A stretch of 40,314 nt of DNA from Gemmatimonadales bacterium. Its GTDB lineage: Bacteria > Gemmatimonadota > Gemmatimonadetes > Gemmatimonadales > GWC2-71-9. Positions within the stretch are counted from its first letter, which is position 1, and each line of letters opens with the position of its first letter. The stretch spans positions 1-40,314 of the forward strand of contig JBFHWR010000001.1 of NCBI GenBank assembly GCA_041599395.1. The letters run 5' to 3'. Positions 2,486-28,725 of the stretch are shown one piece after another. The notes under the pieces are model-generated. The model had not been told where the DNA came from, did no database searches, and saw only the letters and a program-made list of their open reading frames with translations. Position numbers and translations under genes: made by a program.

Positions 2486-2519
2486 ACTCACCACTCACCA
2501 CCTACCACTACCACCTAAT
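2486..2519 (-). repeat. Heptamer-periodic degenerate tandem repeat (ACTCACC ACTCACC ACCTACC ACTACC ACCTAAT on + strand)
   Basis: Read directly. Lies in the divergent region between the M24 gene and the 2599 gene. It is the reverse complement of the GGTAGGT/GGTGAGT unit family seen at 11021-11132. Confidence 0.75.
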
Positions 2520-2598
2520 CATTCAGCTTGCAGCCTCGGGTTTTTGAGGTCAAGTTTGCTCCCTCGTGCAAAACCTCTTCCCCCTCCAGGAGGTCTCC

Positions 2599-3348
2599 AT
2601 GAAGCGCATTGGCATGGCGGTAACCGCAGCGATGATCGCCTTCGGATCCTCGGTACTCGCCCAAGACCAGCCGAATCCGGTGATATTCGGCCAGTACTAT
2701 CGCTGCAACCAGGGTCAGGAAACGCGGGTCGATGACATCGTGCGCGGCGTGGTGGGACCCGTGGTCCAGAAGCATGTGGACATGGGCCATTTGACCGGCT
2801 GGGTCTGGTTTGCCCACTCGCAGGGTGGCGCGTGGCGCCGGCTATTTGCGATCGTAGGGACAGACCTCGCCCAGATGATGGATGTCAGGGAGCAGATGGT
2901 CGCAGAGTTGACCGAGCAGCATGCCGACGCGCTAGGAGAACTTGGCTCGATTTGCGGGAGCCACGACGACTATATCTGGGTCGGTATTTCCACCTCTACG
3001 CCGGATCCTGCCGCCGTTGGCGGCGCGACCTTTTCGACCTACTATGCCTGCGATAACGCCCGCGAAGGTCGCACCAATCAGATCTTCGAGGACGTCCTCG
3101 CACCTCTGTTCAAGAAACACGCTGACATGGGCCACCTTGCGTCGTGGGGCTTCTACGCGCACCGCTCGGGAGGCATCTTCCGCCGTCTCATGACGTTCAG
3201 CGGGGCGAATCACAAGACGCTGCTCAACATGCAAAACGCAATTTTCCAGGAGGCGAACCAGACGAACGCACTCGCGATGAACGAGTTCCGGGAGATCTGC
3301 AATTGGCACACGGACTATATGTGGAACAACGCGACGACGGGGCAGTGA
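2599..3348 (+). CDS. Secreted protein of unknown function built from two tandem homologous ~100-aa domains
   Basis: Track ORF 2566..3348. ATG 2599 is preceded by GGAGG. Signal peptide MKRIGMAVTAAMIAFGSSVLA|QDQ. The two halves align by eye (YYxC...KHxDMGHLxxW...H..GG..RRL...ICxxHxDYxW). Confidence 0.8.
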   Translation: MKRIGMAVTAAMIAFGSSVLAQDQPNPVIFGQYYRCNQGQETRVDDIVRGVVGPVVQKHVDMGHLTGWVWFAHSQGGAWRRLFAIVGTDLAQMMDVREQMVAELTEQHADALGELGSICGSHDDYIWVGISTSTPDPAAVGGATFSTYYACDNAREGRTNQIFEDVLAPLFKKHADMGHLASWGFYAHRSGGIFRRLMTFSGANHKTLLNMQNAIFQEANQTNALAMNEFREICNWHTDYMWNNATTGQ

Positions 3349-3531
3349 GCCGCAGATAGACGCAGGCCAGGCGGATGCACCCAGATCGGCGCATCGGTCG
3401 TTCGAGCGGCCGGTGCGCCGTGTGCTCTCAAGGTGTCCTAGCAGATGCATTTTCTGAAATGTGCGACGAAACAGGCCAGCCACGGCCACAGCGCTGTCGC
3501 GCTGTGCAAGCCAGCGCGGGCGGTCCAGGAG

Positions 3532-3563
3532 CAGTGACCTTCAGTGACCTCCCAGGGTATTAT
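3532..3563 (+). promoter_or_regulatory. Candidate promoter/operator: perfect direct repeat CAGTGACCT-t-CAGTGACCT overlapping a -35-like GTGACC, 18 nt upstream of TATTAT
   Basis: The 9-mer occurs at 3532-3540 and 3542-3550 (10-bp period). TATTAT at 3558-3563 lies about 33 nt upstream of ATG 3596. Confidence 0.35.
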
Positions 3564-3595
3564 TGCCAGGTTGAACGGAGCTACCAAACGTTCCT

Positions 3596-4027
3596 ATGCG
3601 TGCACGATGGTTCCCACTGCTTCTACTCGCGGCCGGCTGTAACAGCGCGGTCAGTCCGGCGGGAACTGCCCAGTTCGAAGTGGTGGCCAGCCTGGGTGAG
3701 CCTTTCGAGCTCAAGGTGGGCGAATTGGCACTGGTAGAGGACGCAAACATCAACGTGCGGTTTTTCGAGGTGGCCTCAGATTCCCGTTGCCCCAGCCTTG
3801 CGTTGATCTTGTGTGTGTGGGAAGGTGACGGCGCGATCCTCGTCGAGAGTGCCGGGTCGAACTTTGCGGGCCGCATCGACACGCTACACACCACGCTGGA
3901 CCCCAAGATCATCGAGCTGGGCAGTGTCCTCCTGGAATTGCTGCGTCTGGATCCCTATCCGGAGACCACGGACCCTATCCCGACTGAGCAGTACACTGCG
4001 CGGCTTGTCGTGCGGAACCGGGCATAG
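3596..4027 (+). CDS. Small lipoprotein, function unknown
   Basis: 143-aa track ORF. N-terminus MRARWFPLLLLAAGCNS has a lipobox (LAAG|C). No family recognised. Confidence 0.7.
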   Translation: MRARWFPLLLLAAGCNSAVSPAGTAQFEVVASLGEPFELKVGELALVEDANINVRFFEVASDSRCPSLALILCVWEGDGAILVESAGSNFAGRIDTLHTTLDPKIIELGSVLLELLRLDPYPETTDPIPTEQYTARLVVRNRA

Positions 4028-4081
4028 CTCCCAAGATTTTGATCAAGTATCGATTTGGGATTTGGCCAGGAGCGTGGCGCC

Positions 4082-5410: not shown

Positions 5411-5472
5411 CGAGTCCTAGAGGCTAAATGGAATGGCAGGCGCCGGGACGCGCCCCACCACGTCGTATCCCC

Positions 5473-6189
5473 TCACTCCTTCTGGTACCGCGACTGCAGC
5501 CAGCGGTTGGTCGCATCCAACACAGCCAGCACGGCGGCCGGCTCCTGCGAATCTCTCACACCGCCCGTGCCCACCAACAACTCGCTGGTCCGCCCCACCG
5601 AAACGTGCAAGCCCGCTACGACCAAGTTCTTCCCAAACGCTTCGAGGATTCTCACCCCTTCCAGCTCGAACGTGATCGCGGGCATCACCTTCTCCAGCCC
5701 AGCGACTGCGGCACGTGCGGCCGCCATCAATCGTGCCTGTTCGGAATCGGCGGCCAGTGCCTCTCCCCATACCTCTTCGCCGTCCAGCTCCAGGTTGGCG
5801 ATGAAACGCACTTTGGCGGGACCCGCCGAGACGACTTCCAACTTCTTGTAGAGAATGAGGCGGTTGTGTGGCGACTCCTGCACGGCCCGCTCTTCGACCG
5901 CGCGGAGCGGCTCGACCTCGGCTGTTTTTGCGACGCTGATCTTTCGGTGATCGACCTTCAAGCCCAGATGGGCAAGCAGAGCGCTCTCGACGTTGCGAAC
6001 CACCTGCTTCGGGACGGCGTCGCTATCGGCGAGTATATGAATCTCGATGATTTCACCCACCGGGGAGACGACCATGCGCGCAGAATGAACGCCCTGCAGG
6101 CTCTGCAGGAGGTTTTCCGCACGCTTGACTCCCCATGGGTCGGGCTTTGCGCCCTCGTCGGCGGCTCGTGCCGCGTCTGCCGCGCTCAA
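5473..6189 (-). CDS. Hypothetical protein (238 aa) translationally coupled to the upstream GGDEF gene
   Basis: Track ORF. The start codon is TTG, overlapping the GGDEF gene stop (TTGA at 6189-6186). No ATG/GTG alternative occurs in the first ~38 codons. No motif recognised (no PilZ RxxxR/DxSxxG). Confidence 0.6.
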   Translation of the reverse strand: MSAADAARAADEGAKPDPWGVKRAENLLQSLQGVHSARMVVSPVGEIIEIHILADSDAVPKQVVRNVESALLAHLGLKVDHRKISVAKTAEVEPLRAVEERAVQESPHNRLILYKKLEVVSAGPAKVRFIANLELDGEEVWGEALAADSEQARLMAAARAAVAGLEKVMPAITFELEGVRILEAFGKNLVVAGLHVSVGRTSELLVGTGGVRDSQEPAAVLAVLDATNRWLQSRYQKE

Positions 6190-7913
6190 ATTTGCTCGCT
6201 TTCTTGGTTCTCTAGGTCTTCCCCGAACACAACCACAATGTTACCACCGCGTCCCTTCGCCTGATACATCGCCTTGTCTGCCGCTTCCATGACGTCTTCG
6301 TCCTCGGACGATCCGGGATCATGACAGGCGACGCCCACCGACACGGCGATCTCCCCCCGCGCGAACCCCAACGACTCTCCCAGCGACTCGACAGATTCCC
6401 GTACAACCTCCCCGACACGCCGGGCTCCGTCTGTGTCCGTCATCACCAACACCACGACGAATTCGTCACCGCCGTATCGGGCCGCCAAGTCGGTCTGCCG
6501 CACCGACCGAAGGAGAACCTTGCCGACGCCGGCGAGCACCTTGCTCCCCATTTCGTGACCGTGGAAATCGTTGACGAGCTTGAAGTCGTCCATGTCGACG
6601 AACAGCACGGCAAACTGTTCGCCGTTACGGCCGCTCCGGGCTTTCTCCTGCTCCAGGCGGTCTCGCAGGACCTTGATGGTCGCGAGCCCCGTCAGCTCGT
6701 CTCGTGTCGACTGCTCGATCGCAACGCTGGCGCGCCGTTCATGGTAGGGCGGACACTGGCGAAACGCCGCACGCCCCTTGAGCATTGCCGTCGCAAAGTC
6801 GACGCAGGTGGGGTATCCGCAGGCTCCACAGTCCCAGTCCATACCCGTTGGCGCGCGGCCGATCTGCTCGATCACACCCTCGATTTCCTTTGCCGTGGGA
6901 GTGTGCGGCACCAGGACGAAGTCGAACGCGGTGGCCACATCGACCGGGACGGCGGCATCCAGAACGGGCTCGGACGATCGGGGAGGTTCCGATTGGGCGA
7001 CGAGCTGGCGGCGCCAGAAAAGCTCTTCCTTCGGGCCGAGTAGTGGGTGATCAAGCGTACCCTCGAACGGCAGCAGGTCGACAAACCCCAGATCGATCCG
7101 CCGGTCGGTCACCGCGTGCGCAATGGCGCCGAGCGAATCGAGCCCACGAACCCGGCGCACTGAACGCTGCGCCGTATGCGCTCCTCGCGCATTCAAGACC
7201 GCGAGCGGAAAGCCACCCGGCGCGCTCAGGTGACGCTGCCGGATGACGGGTAGGCGCCTCAGATAGTTGGGTTGATCCGCCGCCGTGACACCGCGGCGGT
7301 GAAATAACGTCTCCAGCTCGGAAAAAGTCAGAGAGGCGTCGGCGATGTTATTGCTCTCTTCGAGGGCGACGCCGGCATAGACGAGCTTGACATGCTCCCC
7401 ATAGACGGATTTCAGGTAGTCCGCTTCAGCTCTCAGGGGTGTCTTCACCGGCGCGAGGTATGGTACCAGCTCGGGGTGGTCGTGACGGATCCGCTGAACC
7501 ACCAGTGGGCTGGTGGAACGAATCAACGTCCCCCAATCGGGGTCGTCCCACAGCCGGAGGTACTCCTCCGCAACCAATTCGTCCCCAACGACACCCCGCT
7601 CCACCGACCTGAACCCGGCTTCATAGCACGCGTTCACGACCTGTTCGGGCGCGAGCGGATAGAAGTGAACGGCGGACTCGACGGACAGGATCATCACGGC
7701 GTTCCCAGAAGACGCGAGCGCTATCGCGTCCTCGAGGTCGCCTCGCACACCCACGGCATCATGGGGGCACTCGGCCATGCAGGCGCCGGACAGAATACAC
7801 GAGTCGTCATCGATCCGGACCACGTCGCCGTCGACCTCGATCGCCTGCGAATCGCAGACCCGGACGCAGGCCATGCAGCCCACACACTTGTCCGTCAGGA
7901 TCTCGAACTTCAC
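6186..7913 (-). CDS. Diguanylate cyclase (GGDEF) with N-terminal ferredoxin-type Fe-S motifs, degenerate [FeFe]-hydrogenase-like domain and a CxxCxxxxC...C Fe-S domain
   Basis: 575 aa, GTG start 7913 with GAGGAG upstream. N-terminus has CVGCMACVRVC and CILSGACMAECP. Mid-region is hydrogenase large-subunit-like (GFRSVERGVVGDELVAEEYLRL). Then WDCGACGYPTCVDFATAMLKGRAAFRQC. C-terminus is a GGDEF domain (RYGGDEFVV) with I-site RQTD five residues upstream. Confidence 0.9.
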   Translation of the reverse strand: MKFEILTDKCVGCMACVRVCDSQAIEVDGDVVRIDDDSCILSGACMAECPHDAVGVRGDLEDAIALASSGNAVMILSVESAVHFYPLAPEQVVNACYEAGFRSVERGVVGDELVAEEYLRLWDDPDWGTLIRSTSPLVVQRIRHDHPELVPYLAPVKTPLRAEADYLKSVYGEHVKLVYAGVALEESNNIADASLTFSELETLFHRRGVTAADQPNYLRRLPVIRQRHLSAPGGFPLAVLNARGAHTAQRSVRRVRGLDSLGAIAHAVTDRRIDLGFVDLLPFEGTLDHPLLGPKEELFWRRQLVAQSEPPRSSEPVLDAAVPVDVATAFDFVLVPHTPTAKEIEGVIEQIGRAPTGMDWDCGACGYPTCVDFATAMLKGRAAFRQCPPYHERRASVAIEQSTRDELTGLATIKVLRDRLEQEKARSGRNGEQFAVLFVDMDDFKLVNDFHGHEMGSKVLAGVGKVLLRSVRQTDLAARYGGDEFVVVLVMTDTDGARRVGEVVRESVESLGESLGFARGEIAVSVGVACHDPGSSEDEDVMEAADKAMYQAKGRGGNIVVVFGEDLENQESEQI

Positions 7914-8169
7914 GGATCTCCTCTACCCGAACAATGGGCAGCAGACAGGGACGGACTCGGGAGCGGAAACACGGCCAAAGCACCTCGATGTGTGACCGAA
8001 ATCTACCATACGTCGTGCCCTCGAGAGCGAATCTGGAGGTTGGGGGGAGCACACTATGGGACGGAACGGTCTTTCTGTCAATCCCCAGTTCTGATTCAAC
8101 ATCTTGTAGTATAGTTACTTAGCGGGTTCACCGGAGAAATTACTGTAGCTCAGGCACAACATAATCACA

Positions 8170-8277
8170 CACTGTTGCGACAGTGATCGAACACAGGTCG
8201 ATCGGCAGCGTGACCTGTGGGAGGTCTTATTCGGGTGGGGGGTGACGAAAGTATACCAGGTATACAATCGTCTCCCC
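8170..8277. other. Three consecutive stem-loops / palindromes in a 650-bp non-coding divergent region
   Basis: CACTGT-tgcg-ACAGTG (8170-8185). CACAGGTC-12 nt-GACCTGTG (8192-8219). GGGG.GACG-aaa-GTATAC-cag-GTATAC-aat-CGTC.CCCC (8239-8277). All read directly. Confidence 0.4.
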
Positions 8278-8400
8278 TTGCGTCGCGAAACACCCCCACA
8301 AGCCCACGACCCCCGCCTCCCGGCCACGCGGCCCGCGATGCCGGTTGCCCGCCCTCCAGGCACAATCTCCTCCGCCCGCCGCCAACCTGAGCCCGGATGA

Positions 8401-8459
8401 CCATCCCTCCACCACTACCATTTACCACTCACCAACTGACCACTCACCACCTACCACCT
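8401..8459 (-). repeat. Heptamer-periodic degenerate repeat tract (…ACTACC ATTTACC ACTCACC … ACTCACC ACCTACC ACCTG on + strand)
   Basis: Read directly, about 105 nt upstream of the copC ATG. Same ACCTACC/ACTCACC unit family as 2486-2519. Confidence 0.75.
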
Positions 8460-8564
8460 GCTCGAAATAACCTCCCCCAGGACCCCCAACTATATTCTTC
8501 TGGCACCATGTCTAACTCAGGTTGCAGTGGCAGGGATATCGATATCGAGAAGGGGCACCCAACT

Positions 8565-8999: not shown

Positions 9000-9036
9000 C
9001 GTCGTGAGCCCGACTCGCCACCGGCTTGCAGGACAC

Positions 9037-9067
9037 ACGGCAACCAAGGATTCCGGTTGCCGTTTTT
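9037..9067 (+). terminator. Intrinsic terminator/attenuator between copC and copD
   Basis: ACGGCAACC (9037-9045) pairs with GGTTGCCGT (9055-9063), with a 9-nt loop. It runs into TTTTT (9063-9067). Confidence 0.6.
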
Positions 9068-9086
9068 GTTACCAAGGCCCACGCAA

Positions 9087-10010
9087 ATGAGCGCCGAGTT
9101 CGTCGCTTTTGTGTTACAGGCCGTCGGGCGACTCACGCTCTATCTCGCGGTATTCATGTTGGTCGGCGTCGCGGTTTTCTATACTCGCGTCTTTGCCCCG
9201 GTGGCTCGGGCCAACCCCTCTCTGGTGCGTACCAACATCGAGCTGGCATTGAGCCGTGCCGGCTTGATTATCGCCGCCACACTCGCCGGCATCGGGATCG
9301 TACGTCTCTTTGCCCAGACCTATGCCGTCTTTGGCGTCGATGACGACATGTCGTTCGGATCCGTTCGCATCATCGCGCTCGAGACACCGTGGGGGGTCGG
9401 CTGGAGGCTGCAATTCGCCGCTGCGTTTGCGGTCATCGCGGCGTTTGTGTGGGTACGGCTTCAGCCGCGCGTCGGTTGGTATGTAGCGGTCGTTGCAACC
9501 CTGCTGGTCGGGGCGACGATTCCGCTCACGGGACATGCCATGGCCCAGCCGACGGGGCAGCTCGTGGGCGTCGGGCTCCAGGTCGCCCACATCCTGGGGG
9601 CCACCGTCTGGATCGGGACCCTCCTGATCCTTTATACGCTCGGCCTGGGAAGCGCGGGTGTGGGTGAGCGCGGAGCGAAATGGGACTCGGATCTGATCAA
9701 CGCCTTCTCCCCGCTGGCGCTCGGCGCGGTGGGTTTCCTCCTCATGGCCGGTGTCACCAGCGCGTTCGTTTTCCTGGATTCATGGAATCAGCTCTGGCAC
9801 ACGGCGTACGGGCGTACACTCCTCGGAAAGATTGCGTTCTTTGCGGGAACGGGCGCTGTCGGCGCATACAACTGGCGCATTTTGCGGCCGCGGCTCGGCG
9901 AGGCGGGGAGCGTGCGTGCGATTCGCCGCTCCATCGCCGGTGAACTCCTCGTTGCCCTCATCGTGCTTTGTGTCACCGCCGTACTGGTGGCGTTGCCGTT
10001 GGAGCATTGA
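9087..10010 (+). CDS. copD: CopD-family integral membrane protein
   Basis: Track ORF 9057..10010. The 9057 start lies inside the terminator hairpin, so ATG 9087 (MSAEFVAF...) is preferred. Multi-pass hydrophobic protein immediately after copC. Confidence 0.8.
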   Translation: MSAEFVAFVLQAVGRLTLYLAVFMLVGVAVFYTRVFAPVARANPSLVRTNIELALSRAGLIIAATLAGIGIVRLFAQTYAVFGVDDDMSFGSVRIIALETPWGVGWRLQFAAAFAVIAAFVWVRLQPRVGWYVAVVATLLVGATIPLTGHAMAQPTGQLVGVGLQVAHILGATVWIGTLLILYTLGLGSAGVGERGAKWDSDLINAFSPLALGAVGFLLMAGVTSAFVFLDSWNQLWHTAYGRTLLGKIAFFAGTGAVGAYNWRILRPRLGEAGSVRAIRRSIAGELLVALIVLCVTAVLVALPLEH

Positions 10011-10028
10011 AGCGGGATACGGACAGCG

Positions 10029-10052
10029 CCCGGACGCCCGGACGCCCGGCGC
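10029..10052 (+). repeat. Short octamer repeat CCCGGACG CCCGGACG CCCGGCGC just after the copD stop
   Basis: Read directly, 19 nt downstream of the TGA at 10008-10010. Confidence 0.4.
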
Positions 10053-10200: not shown

Positions 10201-11019
10201 GTGGCTAACGGATTGAAAACCGCGGCATTACTCGGAATCTTGAGCGCGTTGTTCCTGGTCTTGGGCGAGCTCGCCGGCGGCCAAACAGGACTCATCATTG
10301 CGTTCGGCATCGCCGTGGTCATGAACTTCGGCTCGTACTGGTTCGCCGACAAGATCGTGCTGAAGATGCACAAGGCTCAGGAGGTCGGGCCCGACCACCC
10401 GTTGTACCAAATGACCCAGCGCCTAGCGCAACGGGCAGACCTGCCGATGCCGAAGGTCTATGTCATTCCGACTGATTCACCCAATGCTTTCGCCACCGGT
10501 CGCAATCCGGAGCACGCAGCGGTCGCTGCCACCCAGGGAATCATGCGGGTGTTGAACGAAGACGAGCTTGCGGGCGTGATGGCCCACGAGCTGGCGCACG
10601 TGAAGCACCGTGACATCCTCATCAGTTCGGTTGCCGCAACGATCGGGGCCGCCATCATGATGTTTGCGCGGTTTGCGATGTTTTTCGGAGGCGGCCGCGA
10701 CCGGGGCGGCAACCCCATCGCGATGATAGCCATGATGCTGCTCGCGCCACTGGCCGCGATGATCATCCAAGCGGCGATATCCCGCTCACGCGAGTTCGCG
10801 GCCGATCGCGGCGGCGCCGAGATTGCAGGCTCACCGCGCGGCTTGGCGGGCGCACTTCGCAAGATCGAGGCGGCGGCCAAGCAGCGACCGCTCGAGACCA
10901 ACCCTGCCGTCCAACACATGTACATCGTCAAGCCTTTTTCCGGACGCGGTATGCTGTCGCTCTTCAGCACGCATCCGCCCACCGAACAGCGGGTCGAGAG
11001 ACTGATGGCTATTCGATGA
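10201..11019 (+). CDS. htpX: Zinc metalloprotease HtpX
   Basis: [10 protein letters not shown] (HExxH), four hydrophobic segments, C-terminal [11 protein letters not shown]. Start placed at GTG 10201 ([12 protein letters not shown]...); the track start is 10150. Confidence 0.9.
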
Positions 11020-11020
11020 T

Positions 11021-11132
11021 AGGTGTTGGGTGGTAGGTGGTAGGTGGTAGGTGGTAAGTGGTAAGTGGTAAGTGGTAGGTGGGAGGTGTTGGATGTTGAA
11101 TGTTGGGTGTTGCATGTCCGGTGTTGGGTGGT
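11021..11132 (+). repeat. 16 in-register heptamers (AGGTGTT GGGTGGT AGGTGGTx3 AAGTGGTx3 AGGTGGG AGGTGTT GGATGTT GAATGTT GGGTGTT GCATGTC CGGTGTT GGGTGGT)
   Basis: Counted base by base. TG at unit positions 4-5 is invariant in all 16 units. The tract begins 1 nt after the htpX stop. Confidence 0.9.
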
Positions 11133-11285
11133 TGGCATCACCTCACCCACTTGAGCTATGTATCTGCAACTTCTCTGTTCGTGTACGAAAACACTCCCAA
11201 TCAACTTCAGCCAGAACGCGCCGCACCGGTCAAAGCGCTCGACAGGCAATGCCTGCCGCTGACCAACTACATAAGGAGTAGTGTC

Positions 11286-14036
11286 ATGCCATGTAGCGTA
11301 TTCTCTTCGCGACCGATGTTCACCAGCCTCCTCTTCGTTGCCGCAACTGTTGCCACGCCGCTCTGCGCGCAAGATGTGACGGGGGGAGCCACGGTGGAAG
11401 GCATCACCGAGTACACGCTCCCCAACGGCCTCCAGGTGTTGCTGTTCCCTGACGCGAGCAAGCCCACCACAACGGTCAACATCACGTACTTTGTCGGCTC
11501 GCGGCATGAGGCGTACGGCGAAACAGGAATGGCGCACCTCCTCGAACACCTCGTGTTCAAGGGCACCCCCAACCACCCCGACATCCCCCAGGAGCTGACC
11601 GAGCGCGGCGCCCGGCCCAACGGGACCACGTGGTTCGATCGCACCAACTACTTCGAAACCTTTCCTGCGACCGACGAAAACCTCGAGTGGGCACTCGACC
11701 TCGAGGCAGACCGCATGATCAACAGCTTCATCTCCGCTGATGACTTGGCGTCAGAGATGACGGTCGTCCGAAACGAGATGGAGGCGGGAGAGAACAGCCC
11801 GTTTGCCATCTTGATGCAACGGACGCTTTCGACCGCGTATCTGTGGCACAACTACGGAAACTCGACCATCGGTGCTCGCTCCGATGTCGAGAACGTACCG
11901 ATCGGTCGCCTCCAAGACTTCTATCGGAAGTATTATCAGCCGGATAACAGCATGCTTGTAGTGGCCGGCAGGTTTGACGAACAACGAGCCTTGGAACTCA
12001 TCGTCGAAAAGTTTGGCGGCATTCCGCGTCCGGACCGAACCGGGGCCAACTACATCTATCAGACGTACACAAGAGAACCTACCCAGGATGGCGAGCGAAG
12101 GGTCTCGCTCCGTCGGGTCGGGGACACGCAGTTCGTCATGGCGTCGCACCATGTTCCGCCGGGTTCGCACGAAGAATTCGCTGCCGTCAGCATCCTGTCA
12201 CATGCACTCGGCAATCAACCATCAGGGAGGCTGCACAAGGGCCTCGTCGAAACAGGCAAGGCCGCAAGGGTCGGTGCTTTCCCGTTTCAGCTTCGGGAAG
12301 CAGGTCCCTTGCTGCTGTTCGCGGAGGTGCGGAAGGACAGCTCGTTGGACGGCGCCTGGAACTCTATGCAAGAGATTTTGGCGGATGTCGTCACGAATCC
12401 GATCACCGACGAGGAACTGGAGCGTGCCCGCCAGGCATTGCTCCGCACCATTGAACTGACATTCAACAATTCCGAGCGCATCGCACTACAGCTGAGCGAG
12501 TGGGCGGCGATGGGCGACTGGCGGTTGTTCTTCATTCATCGTGACCGCATCAAGGACGTTGGACTGGAGCAGGTGCGCCGAGCAGCCGCGCTGTACTTGA
12601 AGCCGCAAAACCGGACACTCGGCTTCTTCATTCCAACCGACGAGCCCGACCGTGCAGAGATTCCCACTGCCCCGGACATCGTCGCGCTGGTCGATGATTA
12701 TGCCGGCGGCGAGGAAGTGGCAATGGGTGAAGTGTTCGACCCATCGCCCGCAAATATCGAGTCCCGCACGTCCAGGATGACGCTTCCGAGCGGGTTCAAG
12801 CTCGCCCTGCTGCCAAAGGACACGCGCGGCGAAACCGTGTTTGCGACGTTCAGGGTGCTGTTCGGGACCGAATCGTCGCTCATGCACAAGGGAGATGCCG
12901 GGAGTCTCGCCGCCGCAATGCTGATGCGCGGTACGAAGCAGCGGACACGGCAGGAGATCACGGACGAGTTTGCGCGGTTGAAGGCGCAGGTCTCCATTGG
13001 CGGCGGGGTTTCCTCGGCAACGGGACGCATCGAGACGACCCGTGAGAACCTCCCGGCGGTGTTGCGTCTTGTTGGGGAGGTCATGCGCGAGCCGGCCTTC
13101 GACTCTGCGGAGTTCGAGCAACTCAAGCAGGAACGTCTGGCGAGCTTAGAAGCGGCTCGCTCACAGCCAAACGCGCTGGGGTCAATCGCGTTCAGCCGTC
13201 ATCTCGCGCCATGGCCCAAGGGTCATCCCCGTTACACTGCAACGATCGGCGAGGACATCGAGGGTCTACAGAACGCCACGCTCGAGGACGCGCAGGCATT
13301 CTACACCGACTTCTACGGGGCGAAGCGGGGGCACATGGCCGTGGTGGGTGACTTCGAACCCGACCTCGTCACCGAGATCGTGAGCGATATCTTTGGCGAC
13401 TGGCAAGCGCCCATGGCTTCGGAGCGGGTCGCTTCCGTGTATCGCGACATCAGCGCCGAGCGTCTTTCCATTGAGACGCCCGACAAAGCGCAGGCGTTCT
13501 TCGTGGCCGGGATGAACCTGAACCTGGGCGACGACCACCCCGACTACCCAGCCCTCGTGCTCGCCAATTACATGCTGGGCGGCGGATTTCTGAACTCTCG
13601 TTTGGCCACGCGCATTCGGCAAAAGGATGGTCTGAGCTACGGCATCGGGTCGCGTTTCACTGCCCACCCTACGGACGGGAACGGGCAGTTCACGACCTTC
13701 GCCATCTACGCGCCGGAGAACGTCGGCCCGCTCGAGGCCGCGTTCAAGGAGGAAATCACCCGTGCACTGGAGGACGGGTTCACTGACGAGGAAGTCGCGG
13801 CGGCGAAGGCAGGATACCTCGATTCCCGGGGTGTGAGCCGGGCACAAGATGCCTCGCTAGCGAGTATGTTGTCGCAGCACCTCTACTTCAATCGCACGAT
13901 GGATTGGGACGCCACCGTCGAAAACAGGATCGCGGATCTCACTCCGTCGATTATCGCGCAGGCGATGCGACGCCACATCGACGTGGACAAGATCACCGTT
14001 GTCGTGGCGGGAGACTTCTCGCAGCCGGTGCCATAA
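11286..14036 (+). CDS. M16-family (pitrilysin/insulinase-like) zinc peptidase, long single-chain form, exported
   Basis: Track ORF 11100..14036. ATG 11286 has AAGGAG upstream. Signal MPCSVFSSRPMFTSLLFVAATVATPLCA|QD. Inverted zincin motif HLLEHLVFKGT. About 916 aa, consistent with two active/inactive M16 domain pairs. Confidence 0.9.
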   Translation: MPCSVFSSRPMFTSLLFVAATVATPLCAQDVTGGATVEGITEYTLPNGLQVLLFPDASKPTTTVNITYFVGSRHEAYGETGMAHLLEHLVFKGTPNHPDIPQELTERGARPNGTTWFDRTNYFETFPATDENLEWALDLEADRMINSFISADDLASEMTVVRNEMEAGENSPFAILMQRTLSTAYLWHNYGNSTIGARSDVENVPIGRLQDFYRKYYQPDNSMLVVAGRFDEQRALELIVEKFGGIPRPDRTGANYIYQTYTREPTQDGERRVSLRRVGDTQFVMASHHVPPGSHEEFAAVSILSHALGNQPSGRLHKGLVETGKAARVGAFPFQLREAGPLLLFAEVRKDSSLDGAWNSMQEILADVVTNPITDEELERARQALLRTIELTFNNSERIALQLSEWAAMGDWRLFFIHRDRIKDVGLEQVRRAAALYLKPQNRTLGFFIPTDEPDRAEIPTAPDIVALVDDYAGGEEVAMGEVFDPSPANIESRTSRMTLPSGFKLALLPKDTRGETVFATFRVLFGTESSLMHKGDAGSLAAAMLMRGTKQRTRQEITDEFARLKAQVSIGGGVSSATGRIETTRENLPAVLRLVGEVMREPAFDSAEFEQLKQERLASLEAARSQPNALGSIAFSRHLAPWPKGHPRYTATIGEDIEGLQNATLEDAQAFYTDFYGAKRGHMAVVGDFEPDLVTEIVSDIFGDWQAPMASERVASVYRDISAERLSIETPDKAQAFFVAGMNLNLGDDHPDYPALVLANYMLGGGFLNSRLATRIRQKDGLSYGIGSRFTAHPTDGNGQFTTFAIYAPENVGPLEAAFKEEITRALEDGFTDEEVAAAKAGYLDSRGVSRAQDASLASMLSQHLYFNRTMDWDATVENRIADLTPSIIAQAMRRHIDVDKITVVVAGDFSQPVP

Positions 14037-14041
14037 CAGCC

Positions 14042-14095
14042 GGTGTTAGGTGGTGGGTGGCAGGTGGTCCGACCTACCACCTTCCACCTAGCACC
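14042..14095. terminator. 24-position imperfect hairpin made of four G-strand heptamers facing four C-strand heptamers, between convergent genes
   Basis: 14042-14065 pairs with 14072-14095 (20 Watson-Crick pairs, 2 G-T, 2 mismatches), loop GGTCCG. It lies 5 nt after the M16 stop and 20 nt after the minus-strand 14116 stop. There is no U-tract. Confidence 0.5.
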
Positions 14096-14115
14096 TGAGG
14101 ATGTGTGGCTGCGGG

Positions 14116-14313
14116 TTACGCCACCGCGCACGTCATGTCCTGACCACAACACATCGGCGACTTGATCTTGCCGTGCCCTTCGGGACATTCGGAGATGTGA
14201 ACGGTCGTCCCGTTATCCAGCTCGAGCGTCCCGTGTTCGAGTTCCGCGCCGCACTTGCCACACGTCATCGTCCCCACGCTCATGCCGCATTTGTCACAGG
14301 TGTAAGCCGCCAT
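14116..14313 (-). CDS. Cys-rich 65-aa protein (zinc-ribbon-like CxxC...CxxC plus C, H, CC, C)
   Basis: ATG 14313 with GAGG about 10 nt upstream (the track start 14349 is TTG). Sequence: MAAYTCDKCGMSVGTMTCGKCGAELEHGTLELDNGTTVHISECPEGHGKIKSPMCCGQDMTCAVA. Confidence 0.6.
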   Translation of the reverse strand: MAAYTCDKCGMSVGTMTCGKCGAELEHGTLELDNGTTVHISECPEGHGKIKSPMCCGQDMTCAVA

Positions 14314-14403
14314 TCTCGTCCGCCTCGCTCGTACGCAGGTGAATACCAAAGTGATTACCGGTTCGTGAGATCCGGCTCAACAAAGATACTTGGCGGCATG
14401 CGT

Positions 14404-14520
14404 GATTCAACATTCAACATCGAACATCCAACATCCAGCATTCCGGAGCTCAACTGCGCACTCACCCACCCTGCCACCTGCCCCCCCCGAACGGCCCGAC
14501 CGCCTGACCGCCTGACCGCC
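14404..14520 (-). repeat. Heptamer/octamer repeat tract (AACATTC AACATCG AACATCC AACATCC AGCATTC ... CTCACCC ACCCTGCC ACCTGCC ... CCGCCTGA CCGCCTGA)
   Basis: Read directly. The AACATCC units are the reverse complement of the GGATGTT units at 11091-11104. The tract ends 2 nt from the stop of the 14523 gene. Confidence 0.8.
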
Positions 14521-14522
14521 CG

Positions 14523-15440: not shown

Positions 15441-15600
15441 TCCTGTTCCTTGTCGCCAAGCCTGCTCGTGCCAGAAAGGGCGATCGGGGTACGGACGCTG
15501 AGGTGACGTCTACTCGTTTACCGTGATATCGCGCAATGGGTGTGATCCATCTCACACGCTCATTCCGCGTCGCATTACACATAAATTGTGTGAGAGGTGT

Positions 15601-15755
15601 GTGGCTGACTGTGAGGTGGGTTACAGGTGGTTGGCGCGTTCAACGTCCAAGGTCGGGAGCCGGGAAACCGGGAGGCAGCGTGTCAGGAACGGATGTCGGA
15701 TGTTGCTGAACGTTGCACGGTTCGAAGTCGAACGTTGAATATTGAGTGTTGATGT
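15601..15755 (+). repeat. Heptamer-periodic tract (GTGAGGT GGGTTAC AGGTGGT ... GTCGGGA GCCGGGA ... GGATGTC GGATGTT ... GTTGAAT ATTGAGT GTTGATG)
   Basis: Read directly. It ends 4 nt from the stop of the sigma54 activator gene. The G+T-rich strand here is antisense to the flanking genes. Confidence 0.7.
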
Positions 15756-15759
15756 TTTC

Positions 15760-17355
15760 CTACTCCTCCGAGGCCACTTCGACCGACGACTCGGCCGCCG
15801 CCTGGTAATCCTTGATCTTGCGATAGAGTGTCCGCTCCCCGATGCCGAGCTTCTCCGCGGCGCGGCGACGATTGCCTCTCGTCTCCGTGAGCACCGCCTC
15901 GATCGCCGCGCGTTCCACGTCCGCCATTTTCATCCCCGGCCGGTATACCACTTGCCCCTCCGCTTCCGGCGCCACCCGCTGGTCCAGAGGTTCATCGCCG
16001 CCCGCGCCGCCCACGCCCCCCACGCCGCCCGGCACGATCTCCTCATACTGCACCGGCGCACCACGACCCACATCGATCACTTCCACGCGCTGCGGCCCCT
16101 CCTCGAAGCGATGCCGCAGGTCCTCGACTTGCAGTTTCAGTTCCACCAGCGTCCGGAAGATGAACTCCAGCTCCTTGCCGGGTATTTCCCGCATCTGACT
16201 TGGCAGCGGCATGGGCAATAACCGCGACCCGCCTTCACGGACATCGGCAGGGATGTCACTCGGTTTGATCTCGGCGCCCGGCGCAAGCACCACCATCGAA
16301 TCGATCAAGTTCCGAAGCTGACGGACGTTGCCGGGCCAATGCGCGTTCACCAGGATATCCATCGCTTCCGGCGAGATCCCTCGGAACGAGCGCCCGTGTT
16401 GCTCGCTCAGCTCCCGCACGAAACGCTTCACCAAGATCGGGACGTCGCTCTTCCGTTCCCGGAGCGGGGGCAGATAGAACCGGAGCACATTGAGACGGAA
16501 AAAGAGATCTTCGCGAAACTCACCGACCGCGACGCGCTCGTTGAGTGGCTTGTTGGTGGCGGCGACGACGCGTACGTCCACGCGGATCGGTACGGTACCG
16601 CCCACACGGTAGAACGCGCGGCTCTCCAACACCCGAAGCAGTTTGACCTGGGTGGAGAGCGGCATCTCACCCACCTCATCGAGCAGCAGCGTACCGCCGT
16701 CCGCCAATTCGAAACGGCCCAGTCTCCGTTCGGCGGCGCCGGTGAACGAGCCCTTCTCGTGACCGAACAGCTCCGACTCGAGCAGCGATTCCGGGAGTGC
16801 CGAACAGTTGACGGCGATGAACGGACCTGCACGCCGCGGGGACAGCATGTGAATCGCCTGCGCGACGAGTTCCTTCCCGGTGCCGGATTCGCCCTCGATG
16901 AGAACTGTGCTCGACACGGGCGCGATCTGCTCGATTTTGATCAGGACCTCGTGAATCGCGGGACTCTCACCGATGATCCCCGTGCGTTCCTGCAGGCGGC
17001 GCCGTTCGATGAGCCGGCGCGCCGCCGCCACAATGTCGCGCGGGTCGGCCGGCTTCGGCATCCACGCCGTCAGGCCCAGCCGGCGCGCGAGTTCCAGAGG
17101 ATCGCGGTCACCCGGCTCCTCGAGGCCTACCGTGGAAATGGACGCATCCCGCGCGAGCGCGATGAGTTGCGCCGCACGGTGCTCGCGCAACCCGCCCGTG
17201 AGGATGACGACGTCCGGCGGTCCTGCGCGCATGATACCTCGTACGTCATCCATTGACGACACCATGACGGTCTCGAAGTCCGCATTCTCGAACGCCGCGT
17301 TGGTGGGGACCGCGGTTTCGAGATCATCCATGGTAATCAGGGCTCGGTCGGGCAT
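15760..17355 (-). CDS. Sigma54-dependent transcriptional activator (NtrC family) with atypical receiver domain
   Basis: Walker [15 protein letters not shown]-type loop [16 protein letters not shown]-terminal Fis-type HTH ([17 protein letters not shown]). The N-terminal receiver-like fold has DD and K, but the phospho-acceptor position reads DVVILTGGL (Thr, not Asp). Confidence 0.9.
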
Positions 17356-17840
17356 CAGTGATCCGTCGGCTCGCGTCTCAAGAGTTGCACGGCATGCTCG
17401 ATCACCGGTTCGAGCGTCGCCATGCCATCCTTCACGCCACCAGGACTCCCGGGCAGGTTGACAATCAGCGATGCCTTGCGGATTCCCGCAACGGCACGTG
17501 ACAGTATCGTTCTCGCCATTGCCCCACGCGCATCGGCGCGCATCGCCTCCGCAATTCCCGGCGCATCGCGCTCCACGACTGTCCGAGTGGCTTCCGGTGT
17601 CACATCACGTGGCCCGAAGCCCGTGCCGCCGGTCGTGAGAATCACATCGGCCACCGCCTCGTCCGCCCAGCGTATGAGCACACCGGCGATCAAATCCGTT
17701 TCATCCGGTACCACATCACGATCCACCAGCTCGTACCCGCGCCGCTCTACCCACTGCACGATTGCATCTCCCGACGTGTCGTCACGCTTTCCCGCGGCGC
17801 TCAGATCGGAGACGGTGAGCACGGCAACCCGGACGTTCAT
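17355..17840 (-). CDS. mog: Molybdenum cofactor biosynthesis protein, MogA/MoaB family
   Basis: 161 aa, [17 protein letters not shown] motif. Its stop overlaps the activator ATG by 1 nt (TGATG). Confidence 0.85.
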
Positions 17841-18968: not shown

Positions 18969-18969
18969 T

Positions 18970-22099: not shown

Positions 22100-22106
22100 G
22101 AGCCTC

Positions 22107-26607: not shown

Positions 26608-26766
26608 AATCCTTATATCTACCTTACCTGTCGGGCGGGGATCCGCGAGGATCAAATGTGCCCCCGAAGGGAACATTTCCACCCGGCATTATCTGTAACA
26701 TCAATCACAACAAATACTTAGTTCGCCGATCCGGTTGATTGCCCCCGGATGAGGCGGGGCGGATTA

Positions 26767-27291
26767 TTACTCCGAGAGGCTCTGGCGCGCAAGCTCGACC
26801 ACGTGGAGAGCGATCTCCGTCGCAGGCAGCTCTCCGACCGCGATCCGATGATCGGCCTGCCGGTAGGCGGGCTCACGTTGGGCGTAGAGGGCCCTCATCC
26901 GGGCCAGAGGGTCCGAACCGCCGAGCAGGGGACGGGTGCCTGGCGCAGCCCGCAGAACGGCGGTTTCCGGCGGAATCTCGAGGTAAACCGTGATCGCCCG
27001 GCCGCGGGCGGAATCGACATTCCCCGCTTGCGCGGCCCAACCACCACCAGGCACGATGACGGCCGGCGACGGGGTGCTCAGGGCCCGGCCGGTCTCCCGC
27101 GCCTCAACGGTTCGGAACCACGGCTCTCCCCGAACCTGGAAGATTTCAGCAATGGAACGCTTCTCGGCCCGCTCGATTTCCCGGTCGATGTCGATCAGCT
27201 CGACGCCGAGGCCTTGGGCGACCAGCGCCCCGACGGTGGATTTGCCTGAACCCGGGAGGCCGATTAAGACGAGGTGCTTGCTCAACCCCAT
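26767..27291 (-). CDS. aroK: Shikimate kinase
   Basis: LIGLPGSGKSTVG P-loop, 174 aa. Confidence 0.9.
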   Translation of the reverse strand: MGLSKHLVLIGLPGSGKSTVGALVAQGLGVELIDIDREIERAEKRSIAEIFQVRGEPWFRTVEARETGRALSTPSPAVIVPGGGWAAQAGNVDSARGRAITVYLEIPPETAVLRAAPGTRPLLGGSDPLARMRALYAQREPAYRQADHRIAVGELPATEIALHVVELARQSLSE

Positions 27292-27312
27292 CTTACCCTA
27301 CCCTTCCTTCGA

Positions 27313-27347
27313 GAGTCGGGAGTCGGGAGCCGGCGGCGGGAGCGGCG
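27313..27347 (+). repeat. Heptamer tract GAGTCGG GAGTCGG GAGCCGG CGGCGGG AGCGGCG
   Basis: Read directly, in the aroC-aroK intergenic region. Confidence 0.5.
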
Positions 27348-27389
27348 ATCCAGCAACTAACCGGGAACCACTATGATCGATCAATCTCA

Positions 27390-27445
27390 AATCGCCGATC
27401 GCCGATCGCCAATCGCCAATCGCTCACCTACCACGTATCACCTAA
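27390..27445 (-). repeat. Eight in-register heptamers AATCGCC GATCGCC GATCGCC AATCGCC AATCGCT CACCTAC CACGTAT CACCTAA (+ strand)
   Basis: Counted base by base. The last unit overlaps the aroC stop codon (27442-27444). Confidence 0.8.
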
Positions 27446-28617
27446 TCTTTCGTAATCCGCCCGACATACGCATCATAATTCGCTCGCATCTCACGCAGCG
27501 AGTCACCACCGAACTTCTCCGCCATCGCGTCGGCGAGCACCAGCGCCGTCATCGCCTCGGCGATCACACCCATGGCGGGCACCGCGGTGACGTCGGATCG
27601 CTCCGACTGCGCCTTGGCCGCTTCACCCGTCGCCACGTCCACCGTGCCGAGCGGACGACGAAGCGTCGAGATCGGCTTCATCGCGACACGAAGGACGAGC
27701 GGTTCCCCGTTGGTCATGCCACCCTCCAGCCCGCCGGCCCGGTTTGTTTCACGCTCGAAGCGTCCGGTCGCGTCCGACGCGCCGGGCGCGATGACGTCGT
27801 GGGTATGTGAACCCGGCCGGCGGGCGGCCTCAAAACCGAGGCCGACCTCGATTCCTTTGACGGCGGGAATCGACATGATGGCGCGTGCGAGCCGACCGTC
27901 GAGCTTCCGATCCCATGAGACGTGTGACCCCAACCCGACAACCAATCCGCGGGCCACCACCTCCACTATTCCGCCCAGTGTGTCGCGTTGTTTCTTCGCC
28001 GTGTCGATTGCCGCCACCATCGCCTCACTCGCGGCGTCATCGAGACAGCGGACGGGTGAGCGGTCTGCTGTTTCGTTGATCGGTTCGGGAAGCTCTCGTT
28101 GCGGCGTCGCACGAACCGCTCCCAATTCCACGACGTGGCTCCCGATCTCGACGCCAAACTCAGCGAGCAGGCGACGGCACACGGCACCACACGCGACGCG
28201 TGCAACGGTTTCCCGCGCACTCGCGCGCTCCAGCACATCCCGCGCGTCAGTCCGGCCATACTTGAGGAGTCCGGTGAGATCGGCATGACCCGGCCTGGGA
28301 CGAGTGACGCGCCGCCGCCGCTTGGTCCCCGCCACATCCGGTTCGGCGGCCATCACGTCCGCCCAGTTTTCCCAATCGCGGTTCCGGATCAGCAGTGCAA
28401 TGGGTGATCCGATGGTTTCTCCCGCCCGCACACCAGAGAGAAACTCGACCGCGTCTGACTCGATCTTCATGCGTGCGCCTCGGCCGTATCCCGCCTGGCG
28501 ACGCGTGAGCTGGCAGTCGACGTCATCGGATACCAGCCGCAGGCCGGCCGGTATCCCCTCGAGAATCCCGACCAGTGCTTTACCGTGCGATTCGCCTGCG
28601 GTCGTGAATCGGATCAT
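27442..28617 (-). CDS. aroC: Chorismate synthase
   Basis: MIRFTTAGESHGKALVGILEGIPAGL N-terminus, 391 aa. Confidence 0.95.
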   Translation of the reverse strand: MIRFTTAGESHGKALVGILEGIPAGLRLVSDDVDCQLTRRQAGYGRGARMKIESDAVEFLSGVRAGETIGSPIALLIRNRDWENWADVMAAEPDVAGTKRRRRVTRPRPGHADLTGLLKYGRTDARDVLERASARETVARVACGAVCRRLLAEFGVEIGSHVVELGAVRATPQRELPEPINETADRSPVRCLDDAASEAMVAAIDTAKKQRDTLGGIVEVVARGLVVGLGSHVSWDRKLDGRLARAIMSIPAVKGIEVGLGFEAARRPGSHTHDVIAPGASDATGRFERETNRAGGLEGGMTNGEPLVLRVAMKPISTLRRPLGTVDVATGEAAKAQSERSDVTAVPAMGVIAEAMTALVLADAMAEKFGGDSLREMRANYDAYVGRITKD

Positions 28618-28676
28618 CTAGACACCACAACGTCCAACGTTCAACGCGGAACCTTCAGTGCTCAGGGAAAACTCCG

Positions 28677-28725
28677 CATTCAAACATCCAACATCCAGCG
28701 TCCAGCGTCCAGCGTCCCACCTAAG
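28677..28725 (-). repeat. Seven heptamers CATTCAA ACATCCA ACATCCA GCGTCCA GCGTCCA GCGTCCC ACCTAAG (+ strand)
   Basis: Counted base by base. Directly abuts the terminator at 28726. Confidence 0.8.

Follow-up and report, generated by a model that had tools for sequence, protein, structure and literature searches.

Period-7 tandem arrays with a strand preference at gene ends in the intergenic DNA of a Gemmatimonadales bacterium and its relatives

The intergenic DNA of a Gemmatimonadales bacterium carries tandem arrays of short degenerate units, mostly of 7 nt, which we studied in a 40,314-nt stretch of its genome (GenBank assembly GCA_041599395.1, contig JBFHWR010000001.1, positions 1 to 40,314; hereafter the window). 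These arrays are the Gemmatimonadota counterpart of the intergenic heptamers of Xanthomonas, cyanobacteria, Beggiatoaceae, Geobacter and Chloroflexus. They are confined to DNA without coding constraint, each genome reuses its own small set of units with more G than C at many loci, and the sites persist between relatives while copy number and arm content shift quickly. With moderate confidence, we favour the reading that they are simple sequence repeat (SSR) arrays of heptamers, occasionally octamers, generated by slippage, and that selection acting on transcripts filters the direction in which they lie.

Period-7 arrays in the window

An earlier note on this DNA, made from the letters alone, had claimed real period-7 tracts in non-coding DNA only, and the coordinates given by Tandem Repeats Finder (TRF) agree with it: period-7 arrays were found at ten sites (2.7-9.9 copies) and period-8 arrays at 10027-10049 and 14494-14520. 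The period-7 autocorrelation scan proposed there was run on the window, and at the 0.75 level of sliding self-match lag 7 stood out with 92 sliding windows, as compared with 0-6 at other lags, apart from its multiple 14, which also exceeded 6. The manual gene map of the window left 3.5 kb of intergenic DNA, in which there were 5 stringent period-7 arrays (221 bp), whereas 300 dinucleotide-preserving shuffles of the same DNA gave a mean of 0.02 and a maximum of 1. Among the other periods from 4 to 12, no stringent array was found there except 2 at period 8. The supported coding sequences (CDSs) held no period-7 array, as had been claimed, and thus no tract stands within a reading frame, which, along with the space between promoter elements, is where phase-variation repeats switch expression by changes of unit. 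The statement that the tracts occupy most intergenic regions was too strong: the tracts are intergenic, and, counting only regions that reach 50 nt or more, arrays are present in 9 of the 15 within 2486-28725 and in 9 of the 18 in the whole window.

The units fall into families that recur across separate regions of the 40 kb on which recurrence within this genome was judged, namely GGTGGTA/GGTGAGT, GGATGTT/GAATGTT, GGCGATY and GGACGCT. Different intergenic regions of the window have 132 9-mers in common, whereas shuffles gave 54 on average and 83 at most; ACCTACCAC is present in 5 of the regions and AACATCCAA in 3. Composite tracts share a polarity on the G-rich strand, from AGGTGG-type units through GGACGCT or GGCGATY to GGATGTT/GAATGTT. 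The drift of units by single substitutions within a tract, also described earlier, is visible directly in the sequence, as are runs of identical neighbouring variants such as TAGGTGG x 4 followed by TAAGTGG x 3. The tracts and the one intrinsic terminator next to them are as follows.

T1, 2486-2519, minus strand: heptamer array with the G-rich (minus) strand TTAGGTGGTAGTGGTAGGTGGTGAGTGGTGAGT; TRF 2486-2517, period 7, 4.3 copies; in a divergent intergenic region, ending 7 nt upstream of the M24 peptidase ATG (2478).
T2, 8401-8460, minus strand: heptamer array of the GGTGGTA/GGTGAGT family; TRF 8409-8460, period 7, 7 copies; plus strand nearly G-free; copC start (8508) 48 nt downstream.
Octamer variant, 10027-10049, plus strand: CGCCCGGA x 2.9; TRF period 8, 100% matches; 16 nt past the copD stop codon.
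T3, 11020-11135, plus strand: composite array, the longest; TRF period 7, 9.9 + 7.1 copies; TAGGTGG x 4, TAAGTGG x 3, then GGTGTTG/GGATGTT/GAATGTT variants; its start directly abuts the htpX stop (TGA 11017-11019).
T4, 14040-14099, no single strand: inverted heptamer-array pair; TRF G-rich arm 14042-14068, complement 14072-14096; flanked by two convergent genes, M16 (stop 14036) and one for a Cys-rich product of 65 aa (stop 14117-14119).
T5a, 14404-14441, minus strand: heptamer array; TRF 14408-14441, period 7, 4.9 copies; minus strand GGATGTT GGATGTT CGATGTT GAATGTT GAAT.
T5b, 14455-14520, minus strand: composite of GGTGGG/GGCAGGT-family remnants, a C8 run and an octamer array (TRF period 8 at 14494-14520; minus strand GGTCAGGC x 3.4) whose end is 2 nt away from the stop of a 305-aa open reading frame (ORF; stop 14523-14525).
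T6, 15601-15757, plus strand: degenerate tract, missed by TRF and recognised by lag-7 self-match and by reading of the sequence; AGGTGG-type remnants in the left part, GGATGTC/GGATGTT ... GAACGTT/GAATATT/GAGTGTT/GATGTTT in the right part; ends 2 nt from the sigma54 activator stop (15760-15762, minus strand).
T7, 27309-27347, plus strand: short G-rich array, TCGGGAG x 3.6 and then GGCGGCGGGAGCGGCGATCC; TRF period 7; 17 nt from the shikimate kinase start (27291, minus strand).
T8, 27382-27445, minus strand: array; TRF 27382-27423, period 7, 6 copies; minus strand TAGGTGA TACGTGG TAGGTGA GCGATTG GCGATTG GCGATCG GCGATCG GCGATTT GAGATTG, the first unit containing the aroC stop codon TAG itself.
T9a, 28628-28646, minus strand: short array; TRF period 7, 2.7 copies; minus strand GTTGAAC GTTGGAC GTTGTGG; 10 nt upstream of the aroC start (28617).
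T9b, 28683-28725, minus strand: composite array; TRF 28683-28717, period 7, 3.4 + 2.1 copies at 100%; minus strand AGGTGG GACGCTG x 3, GATGTTG x 2, AATG; directly beyond the terminator of the lipoprotein gene (stop at 28781).
Terminator of the lipoprotein gene, 28727-28755, minus strand: intrinsic, hairpin GGCCCGGC...GTCGGGCC followed by the U-run UUUUUCUU, read from the sequence; the stem is present in the minimum free energy (MFE) fold.

For the degenerate tract T6, lag-7 self-match was 0.46 (0.54 in the right half, 15686-15757), versus 0.19-0.31 at other lags.

A chance pattern is excluded by the shuffle controls. An assembly artefact is excluded because the tracts are reproduced, at 98.99-99.9% identity, in three assemblies made independently: in the Logan contig L001 of SRR29257408, which matches 27390-28631 at 99.9%; in another Logan contig, of SRR29257436, which matches 11177-15458 at 99.86%; and in the NCBI contig JBFKNV010000315.1 of GCA_041629155.1, which matches 13367-17322 at 98.99%. 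T8 is reproduced in L001, and the sequence of T4 is unchanged in two other assemblies. Moreover, the phenomenon is seen in dozens of unrelated assemblies, including whole-chromosome or megabase-scale contig submissions, and we regard the chance that either explanation holds as practically negligible. Both ends of L001 (window 27390 and 28631) fall within heptamer tracts, which is to be expected if the k-mers of the tracts are multi-copy in that genome and interrupt short-read assembly.

Two known repeat classes were considered and set aside, in accord with the earlier reading. A CRISPR array has direct repeats of 23-47 nt with unique spacers about as long as the repeats, whereas the copies here are 7 nt long and contiguous, without spacers. 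Repetitive extragenic palindromic (REP) elements or REPINs would need an imperfect palindrome of 20-40 nt and a RAYT transposase, whereas the 7-nt units are not self-complementary and in 9 of the 10 folded tracts the structure was no stronger than in shuffles; the Pfam matches of the window included no transposase. The spurious ORFs attributed to the tracts are also real, as seen in the ORF 8397-8507 upstream of copC and in the false M16 start: the longest M16 ORF begins at ATG 11100 inside T3, and the signal peptide and a 916-aa call in another assembly place the start near 11286.

Position and strand relative to stop codons

Six tracts of the window had been said to lie at a stop codon or directly after a terminator, and the distances proved correct.

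htpX: 0-1 nt from stop to tract.
M16: 5 nt.
305-aa ORF: 2 nt.
sigma54 activator: 2 nt.
aroC: stop TAG within the first unit.
Lipoprotein gene: tract directly after the hairpin and U-run.

For five of the six genes, the strand that is sense for the terminated gene is the G-rich one, as claimed, the sigma54 activator (T6) being the exception. We extended the comparison with the upstream gene, which had been proposed as a check, to 130 loci. Among the arrays within 50 nt of a stop codon, the G-rich strand was sense in 57 of 70 (p = 1e-7), in contrast to 235:203 in array-free DNA beside stop codons, which is unbiased. Stop-adjacent single arrays showed the preference (39:8), as did the stop-adjacent arrays of convergent gene pairs (17:1); with units different from the search seed, the counts were 17:5 in the Gemmatimonadota set and 22:6 in the metagenome set. 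In inverted array pairs the G-rich arm came first in 46 of 50 (p = 4e-10), a count that is independent of gene calls and in which a few TRF rows duplicate one pair. The gap between array and stop codon was also shorter (median 7-10 nt) than that to a start codon (24-49 nt; Mann-Whitney p = 0.02 and p = 0.009).

No significant strand bias relative to transcription was detected for all arrays between co-directional genes (58:45, p = 0.24), nor for orientation relative to local GC skew as a sign of replication direction (49:34, p = 0.12), and the A-T skew of the arrays was unbiased in orientation. Array orientation was better predicted by G-C skew than by stop-codon content. Three further ideas were considered. 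A rule that the C-rich strand is sense before start codons gave 40:17, but the array-free background was 295:184, probably because the gene caller takes the most upstream start codon, and divergent regions gave 6:6; we do not take this bias to be specific to arrays. A role as back-up stops in three frames is disfavoured by the better prediction from G-C skew and by several relatives' units that contain no stop codon. Seeding of an array by a duplicated heptamer containing the stop codon fits aroC but fails for three related loci (L002, L005 and L079).

Arrays in relatives and their turnover

Over 0.93 Mb from 53 Gemmatimonadota loci that surround the M16 orthologue, period-7 arrays occurred at 3.9 per 10 kb of intergenic DNA versus 0.06 per 10 kb of coding DNA, and any other period at 0-0.9 per 10 kb of intergenic DNA. 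In 26 loci not labelled Gemmatimonadota, the intergenic density of period-7 arrays was 0.5 per 10 kb. At a strict threshold, the relatives had 28 intergenic arrays and 0 coding ones. Unit sets are lineage-specific in the Gemmatimonadota relatives, with several families per genome, as in the following loci.

L068 and L063: GCTGTTG/ATTGGCT and CAGGTAT.
L079: GCTGATA and AGGTTCG.
L032, L037 and L038: GTGAGAN.
L005: TACTCTG.
L002 and L004: AAGCGGG and GTAGGGA.

In L068, arrays occupy entire spacers between genes, many as inverted pairs. L068 and L063, which are 79-91% identical over aligned DNA, have identical units at the same junctions of the atp operon, while they vary in copy number and one of the arms is missing from one of the two genomes. 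The array pairs at two junctions of this apparent ATP synthase operon (L068:12844-17262 and L063:4683-9047; inferred from gene sizes and order only) form hairpins, and their sites are conserved. At the site after the M16 stop, arrays of four different units are found in four lineages (the window, L002, L005 and L079), and none in four others. In L079 and L005 the array is located between the stop codon and an intrinsic terminator.

Turnover was also seen between strains, over the parts of the window covered by the comparison (11177-17322 and 27390-28631). Over about 4 kb, the strain of GCA_041629155.1 shows 31 substitutions relative to the window, and two indels. In one of these indels the octamer array (14498-14505) is shorter by exactly one 8-nt unit, and the other is a change from C8 to C7 (window 14474-14481); the heptamer tracts T4, T5 and T6 are unchanged. 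This one-unit deletion between strains of about 99% identity is direct evidence of slippage. Thus the comparison of unit numbers in orthologous regions that the earlier note had called for shows a difference of one unit in the octamer tract and different copy numbers between the congeneric L068 and L063, and its suggestion of a slippage-prone minisatellite is borne out.

The arrays might alternatively be parts of dispersed composite elements, spread by mobility of a kind resembling that of MITEs, miniature transposable elements with inverted repeats, or by recombination. The same unit families do occur in similar order at many loci (AGGTGG-type, GGACGCT/GGCGATT, GGATGTT/GAATGTT), a composite element with covarying hairpin stems stands at three to four loci of L079, and Logan contigs break within tracts. 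However, neither terminal inverted repeats (besides the arrays themselves) nor target-site duplications nor a transposase were seen, sites are stable between congeneric genomes and between strains, and the array boundaries are ragged rather than fixed. We consider such spread very doubtful.

The composite element of L079, from a Gemmatimonadaceae metagenome-assembled genome (MAG), lies at 9606-9768, 14136-14290 and 17278-17475, with a half copy at 12669-12740. It begins with an (AGCTATC)n array, which is followed by the conserved linker AGTACTTTGGACTG and a GC-rich hairpin resembling a terminator; after a segment that varies come another hairpin, on the opposite strand, and an inverted (TGATAGC)n array. 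Its hairpin stems vary between copies yet stay paired, and it is among the few pairs in which the C-rich arm comes first.

In a wider sample, GGTGGTA x 3 was found in >120 metagenome contigs of 33-75% G+C. The flanks of these contigs gave 240 further period-7 TRF rows with other units, compared with <=115 for any other period; abundant heptamer arrays are therefore a trait of the genome as a whole, one seen in many taxa. An extreme case is L127:1-9948 (Ga0315279_10012019), which packs 25 period-7 arrays, built from about a dozen different units, into 9.9 kb; inverted pairs are frequent among them. Its arrays are stop-free on one strand and give rise to a spurious 1244-aa ORF.

Folding of the tracts

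T4 is the only strongly folding tract, with a long hairpin on both strands (plus strand MFE -51.6 kcal/mol, z = -6.21; minus strand MFE -44.6 kcal/mol, z = -5.08), and the longest tract, T3, is unstructured as RNA (z = +0.78). No U-tract follows the T4 hairpin; CACCUGAGGAUG comes next. A terminator role, which the earlier note had listed among possible roles, is thus not supported as a general one: intrinsic terminators combine a GC-rich hairpin with a U-run, T4 alone has a strong hairpin and lacks the U-tract, and T9b lies downstream of the true terminator (28727-28755), which is separate from it.

The C-rich plus-strand RNA of 8380-8510 (131 nt), which spans T2, is nearly structureless (-11.5 kcal/mol). 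Rho loading sites (rut) are C-rich, G-poor and unstructured stretches of RNA of roughly 60-80 nt. The nearly G-free plus strand of T2 and its weak folding would fit such a site, while many tracts are <60 nt. T2 also lies near the end of an unusually long non-coding region upstream of copC/copD (7914-8507, about 595 nt), for which there was no supported ORF and no Rfam match; its plus strand is very C-rich at about 8270-8460, and the region may serve as an extended leader or give rise to an RNA not yet described.

Two sequence-specific roles in RNA were also considered. The conserved 3' tail of 16S rRNA is AUCACCU, and AGGTGGT is complementary to it with one G·U pair. A Shine-Dalgarno-like role is conceivable for T1, 7 nt before an ATG, but the units of relatives are unlike it and T3 is >150 nt from the next start. 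GGA motifs of the CsrA type in GGATGTT are not general across units.

G-quadruplex-forming regulatory repeats have been proposed for GGGAATC of Xanthomonas and GGGGAYT of Nostoc, and two-tetrad quadruplexes had also been suggested for the window. The GGTGGTA-type tracts have the GG-N1-2-GG spacing, and G-quadruplex-aware folding placed two-layer quadruplexes in T2, T3 and T5 (3 of 10 tracts), changing the MFE of T3 from -18.2 to -39.3 kcal/mol. On the other hand, it added nothing in 7 of 10 tracts, and no tract contains the four runs of >=3 G needed for a three-tetrad quadruplex. GGATGTT, GGCGATT and GGACGCT have a single GG per unit, and the relatives' units GCTGTTG, GCTGATA, CAGGTAT and TACTCTG include ones without GG. 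Units incapable of a three-tetrad structure obey the orientation rule as well; a G-quadruplex is therefore unlikely as the general explanation, and as an account of the arrays as a whole we consider it highly improbable.

The orientation rule at stop codons and the chirality of the inverted pairs would also agree with functional RNA elements of 3' ends, maintained by selection as directional punctuation, in which single G-rich arrays and hairpin pairs with the G-rich arm first would stabilise the 3' end of the upstream mRNA and, via the C-rich complement, load Rho on polymerases arriving from the opposite side. The hairpin of -51.6 kcal/mol between convergent genes of the window, the hairpin arrays at the conserved atp-operon junctions of L068 and L063, and the arrays between stop and intrinsic terminator in L079 and L005 are in line with this, as are the Xanthomonas repeats, which are mostly transcribed and conserved in position (PMC4692102). 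However, half of the window intergenic regions are free of arrays, arrays are gained and lost at the same site among relatives, the units are entirely different between lineages, and most tracts of the window are unstructured. We judge selection for such elements to be, on balance, unlikely.

The arrays could instead be a platform for a single-strand binder with a 7-nt register and one protomer per unit, for which proteins with the oligonucleotide/oligosaccharide-binding (OB) fold, such as the cold-shock family, S1 or the N-terminal domain of Rho, are candidates. The period is fixed at 7 despite differing units, the tracts have the strand skew and the lack of structure to be expected of a single-strand ligand, and CspB of B. 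subtilis binds direct repeats of a heptamer, each heptamer taking up one protein (PMC4679880). Yet the units are unrelated between lineages and several per genome, so that binding would have to be nearly independent of sequence; period-8 variants coexist with period 7, and no candidate protein was identified. We find this explanation quite improbable.

Origin and orientation of the arrays

We therefore return to slippage with selection on orientation as the reading that we prefer. Arrays would originate and turn over by slipped-strand mispairing, which may be why blocks of identical neighbouring variant units are seen. They may expand until they reach constrained sequence, and a halt of expansion there could explain why they abut stops and lie further from starts. 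Their orientation would be selected at the transcript level: the C-poor, G-rich strand may be tolerated as mRNA sense past the stop, and the C-rich, G-poor, unstructured complement would be met only by polymerases running antisense into the 3' end of the gene. As the reason for this selection we would prefer Rho. Because Rho loads on C-rich, G-poor, unstructured RNA, a C-rich sense tract after the stop would cause polarity, and reading in antisense would halt incoming transcription. An array together with its inverted copy would give a long transcript hairpin, as at 14040-14099, that may behave like REP-type 3' hairpins. Specific information is probably not contained in the sequence of the unit as such.

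Several points weigh against this account. Pure local slippage explains neither the recurrence of the same units at many loci nor the preference for period 7. There is no rho gene in the window, and many of the tracts, at 25-115 nt, fall short of the length of a classical Rho loading site. The strand bias is strongest between convergent genes (17:1), so that avoidance of operon polarity alone is insufficient; this ratio fits antisense blocking or another benefit of G-rich 3' ends. Three tracts of the window break the rule (2486-2519, 15690-15757 and 28628-28646), and T9b (28683-28725) obeys it beyond a canonical terminator, where sense transcription is unlikely. In addition, genes in the 130 loci were called with a purpose-written simple caller based on codon usage, which gives crude boundaries, and the metagenome loci were picked by one G-rich unit; the same species may recur among them.

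A bolder reading would take the heptamer arrays as a widespread directional punctuation of genomes, in which the C-rich complement is the entry for Rho or another OB-fold binder with a 7-nt register that blocks polymerases coming from the 3' side, and the period is set by the register of the protein and not by slippage. The G-rich-sense and G-arm-first rule is seen in Gemmatimonadota and in metagenomic contigs of 33-75% GC, including unrelated units that do not form G-quadruplexes, and it would stem from a mechanism that they share. We offer this reading as a rather improbable one.

Source DNA, genes and sampling

The window has 62% G+C. The closest match of its M16 peptidase (74% identity) comes from a Gemmatimonadales MAG, and Gemmatimonadota are the majority among the best 80 related loci. 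Pfam supports most genes of the window, as follows.

Peptidases and other genes: M24 peptidase, HD-GYP-like, GGDEF, CopC, CopD, HtpX (M48) and M16 peptidase.
Further genes: two sigma54 activators, GcvT, HslUV, XerC, TopA, AroK and AroC.
Family-level assignments: an ornithine/aspartate carbamoyltransferase-family protein (OTCace domains) and a GIDA-family protein (TrmFO/Gid-like).
Other proteins: a 1289-aa Ig-domain protein, a secretin and pseudopilins.

The 305-aa ORF beside T5b is a predicted gene only, roughly gene-like in its composition (GC1/2/3 = 0.67/0.53/0.70); the hypothetical ORFs of the window, including this one, had no homologue among the 80 related loci. Look-ups of exact proteins with htpX, aroK, M16, M24 and copC gave no match, and no contig of the window's own species was among the metagenome contigs retrieved with GGTGGTA x 3. 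Rfam at gathering thresholds and a tRNA scan gave zero matches in the window, and a scan for consensus promoters and terminators was uninformative (7 terminator-like sites versus 9.9 expected). Two other observations concern genes. At 36744-36787, CTT x 15 (period 3) forms a low-complexity stretch in a pseudopilin-like gene (36123-37112, minus strand), and 6186-7913 encodes a GGDEF diguanylate cyclase fused to 4Fe-4S ferredoxin and Fe-hydrogenase-like domains, an uncommon architecture for a redox sensor.

Comparison with known heptamer repeats

In cyanobacteria, intergenic repeats of heptamers were recognised as early as 1990, and their general excess in prokaryotes was described between 2007 and 2015; our study adds Gemmatimonadota as a phylum, for which no published report of such arrays was found in the literature searched. 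The positional and strand rules of the Xanthomonas repeats extend to units that are incapable of a three-tetrad G-quadruplex, and the evidence points to the skew of G over C relative to the end of the upstream gene. In practice, the tracts give rise to spurious ORFs and false starts (as at M16 ATG 11100) and short-read contigs break there; they could also serve as markers for strain typing.

Cyanobacterial short tandemly repeated repetitive (STRR) sequences form several tandem heptanucleotide families per genome, are mostly intergenic, and were first described in Calothrix PCC 7601. The arrays studied here resemble them in all three respects, namely tandem heptanucleotides, several unit families per genome and a mostly intergenic location. 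The features of intergenic heptanucleotide repeats of the SSR/STRR type are all found here: tandem 7-nt units, a non-coding excess, reuse of units, and variation of copy number at conserved sites. On the other hand, the cyanobacterial hosts are AT-rich and without Rho. The STRR heptanucleotides are also mentioned in a study of Xanthomonas and Nostoc repeats (PMC4692102).

REP, BIME and REPIN elements are imperfect palindromes of 20-40 nt tied to RAYT transposases and have no internal 7-nt periodicity. Like the present arrays, they are intergenic, often at gene 3' ends or inside operons, they form lineage-specific families and their inverted pairs form hairpins. They differ in that a hairpin appears here only where two opposed arrays meet, and most window tracts are one-sided and unstructured.

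Of all classes of long SSR, the heptanucleotides were reported to be the most abundant in most prokaryotic genomes, and polymerase slippage was proposed for them (Mrazek 2007, as cited in PMC4679880 and PMC4692102). TAACTGA direct repeats occur in marine Beggiatoaceae, Microcystis and some Bacteroidetes (MacGregor 2015; PMC4679880). They are similarly intergenic heptamer direct repeats with related variants mixed in, and a post-transcriptional role was proposed; they differ in being clustered just upstream of start codons in forward orientation, in having 2-6 copies, and in the dominance of one unit across phyla. Geobacter metallireducens has GGGACCG x 4 and MTYCTGA x 5 (PMC2700814), Chloroflexus aurantiacus has (GATAGRA)n, and Burkholderia has repeats of 6-8 nt (PMC6749651). 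These too are species-specific, genome-wide families of tandem heptamers, for which the authors speculate on regulation or transposition. However, the Geobacter repeats have a fixed copy number and also occur within genes, and no orientation rule is described for the three.

The closest parallel is with Xanthomonas, in which about 185 GGGAATC arrays per genome were reported for two genomes, together with GGGGAYT in Nostoc PCC 7120 (Rehm et al. 2015; PMC4692102); the intergenic arrays of this kind number in the hundreds in each genome. The GGGAATC arrays are intergenic, rare between divergent genes and located <=50 bp from stop codons on the sense strand, with 70-75 convergent inverted pairs; they are mostly transcribed, and 83% are conserved in position between species while their lengths vary (PMC4692102). 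Our analysis re-derived a 7-nt unit with drifting variants, an intergenic location and scarcity in coding DNA, as in both genera. As in Xanthomonas, we also found sense-strand arrays within 50 bp of stops, overlap with the stop, convergent inverted pairs, conserved sites with varying length and rarity between divergent genes. The Xanthomonas-type strand rule holds with 57:13 at stops, 46:4 for the G-rich arm first, and 5 of 6 stop-adjacent tracts in the window. In Nostoc, by contrast, the G-rich strand favours the non-coding strand and inverted pairs are few (PMC4692102). Unlike both, the units here carry GG or no G run, so that the rationale of a three-tetrad G-quadruplex is inapplicable, several unrelated unit families coexist in one genome, and the host phylum is Gemmatimonadota.

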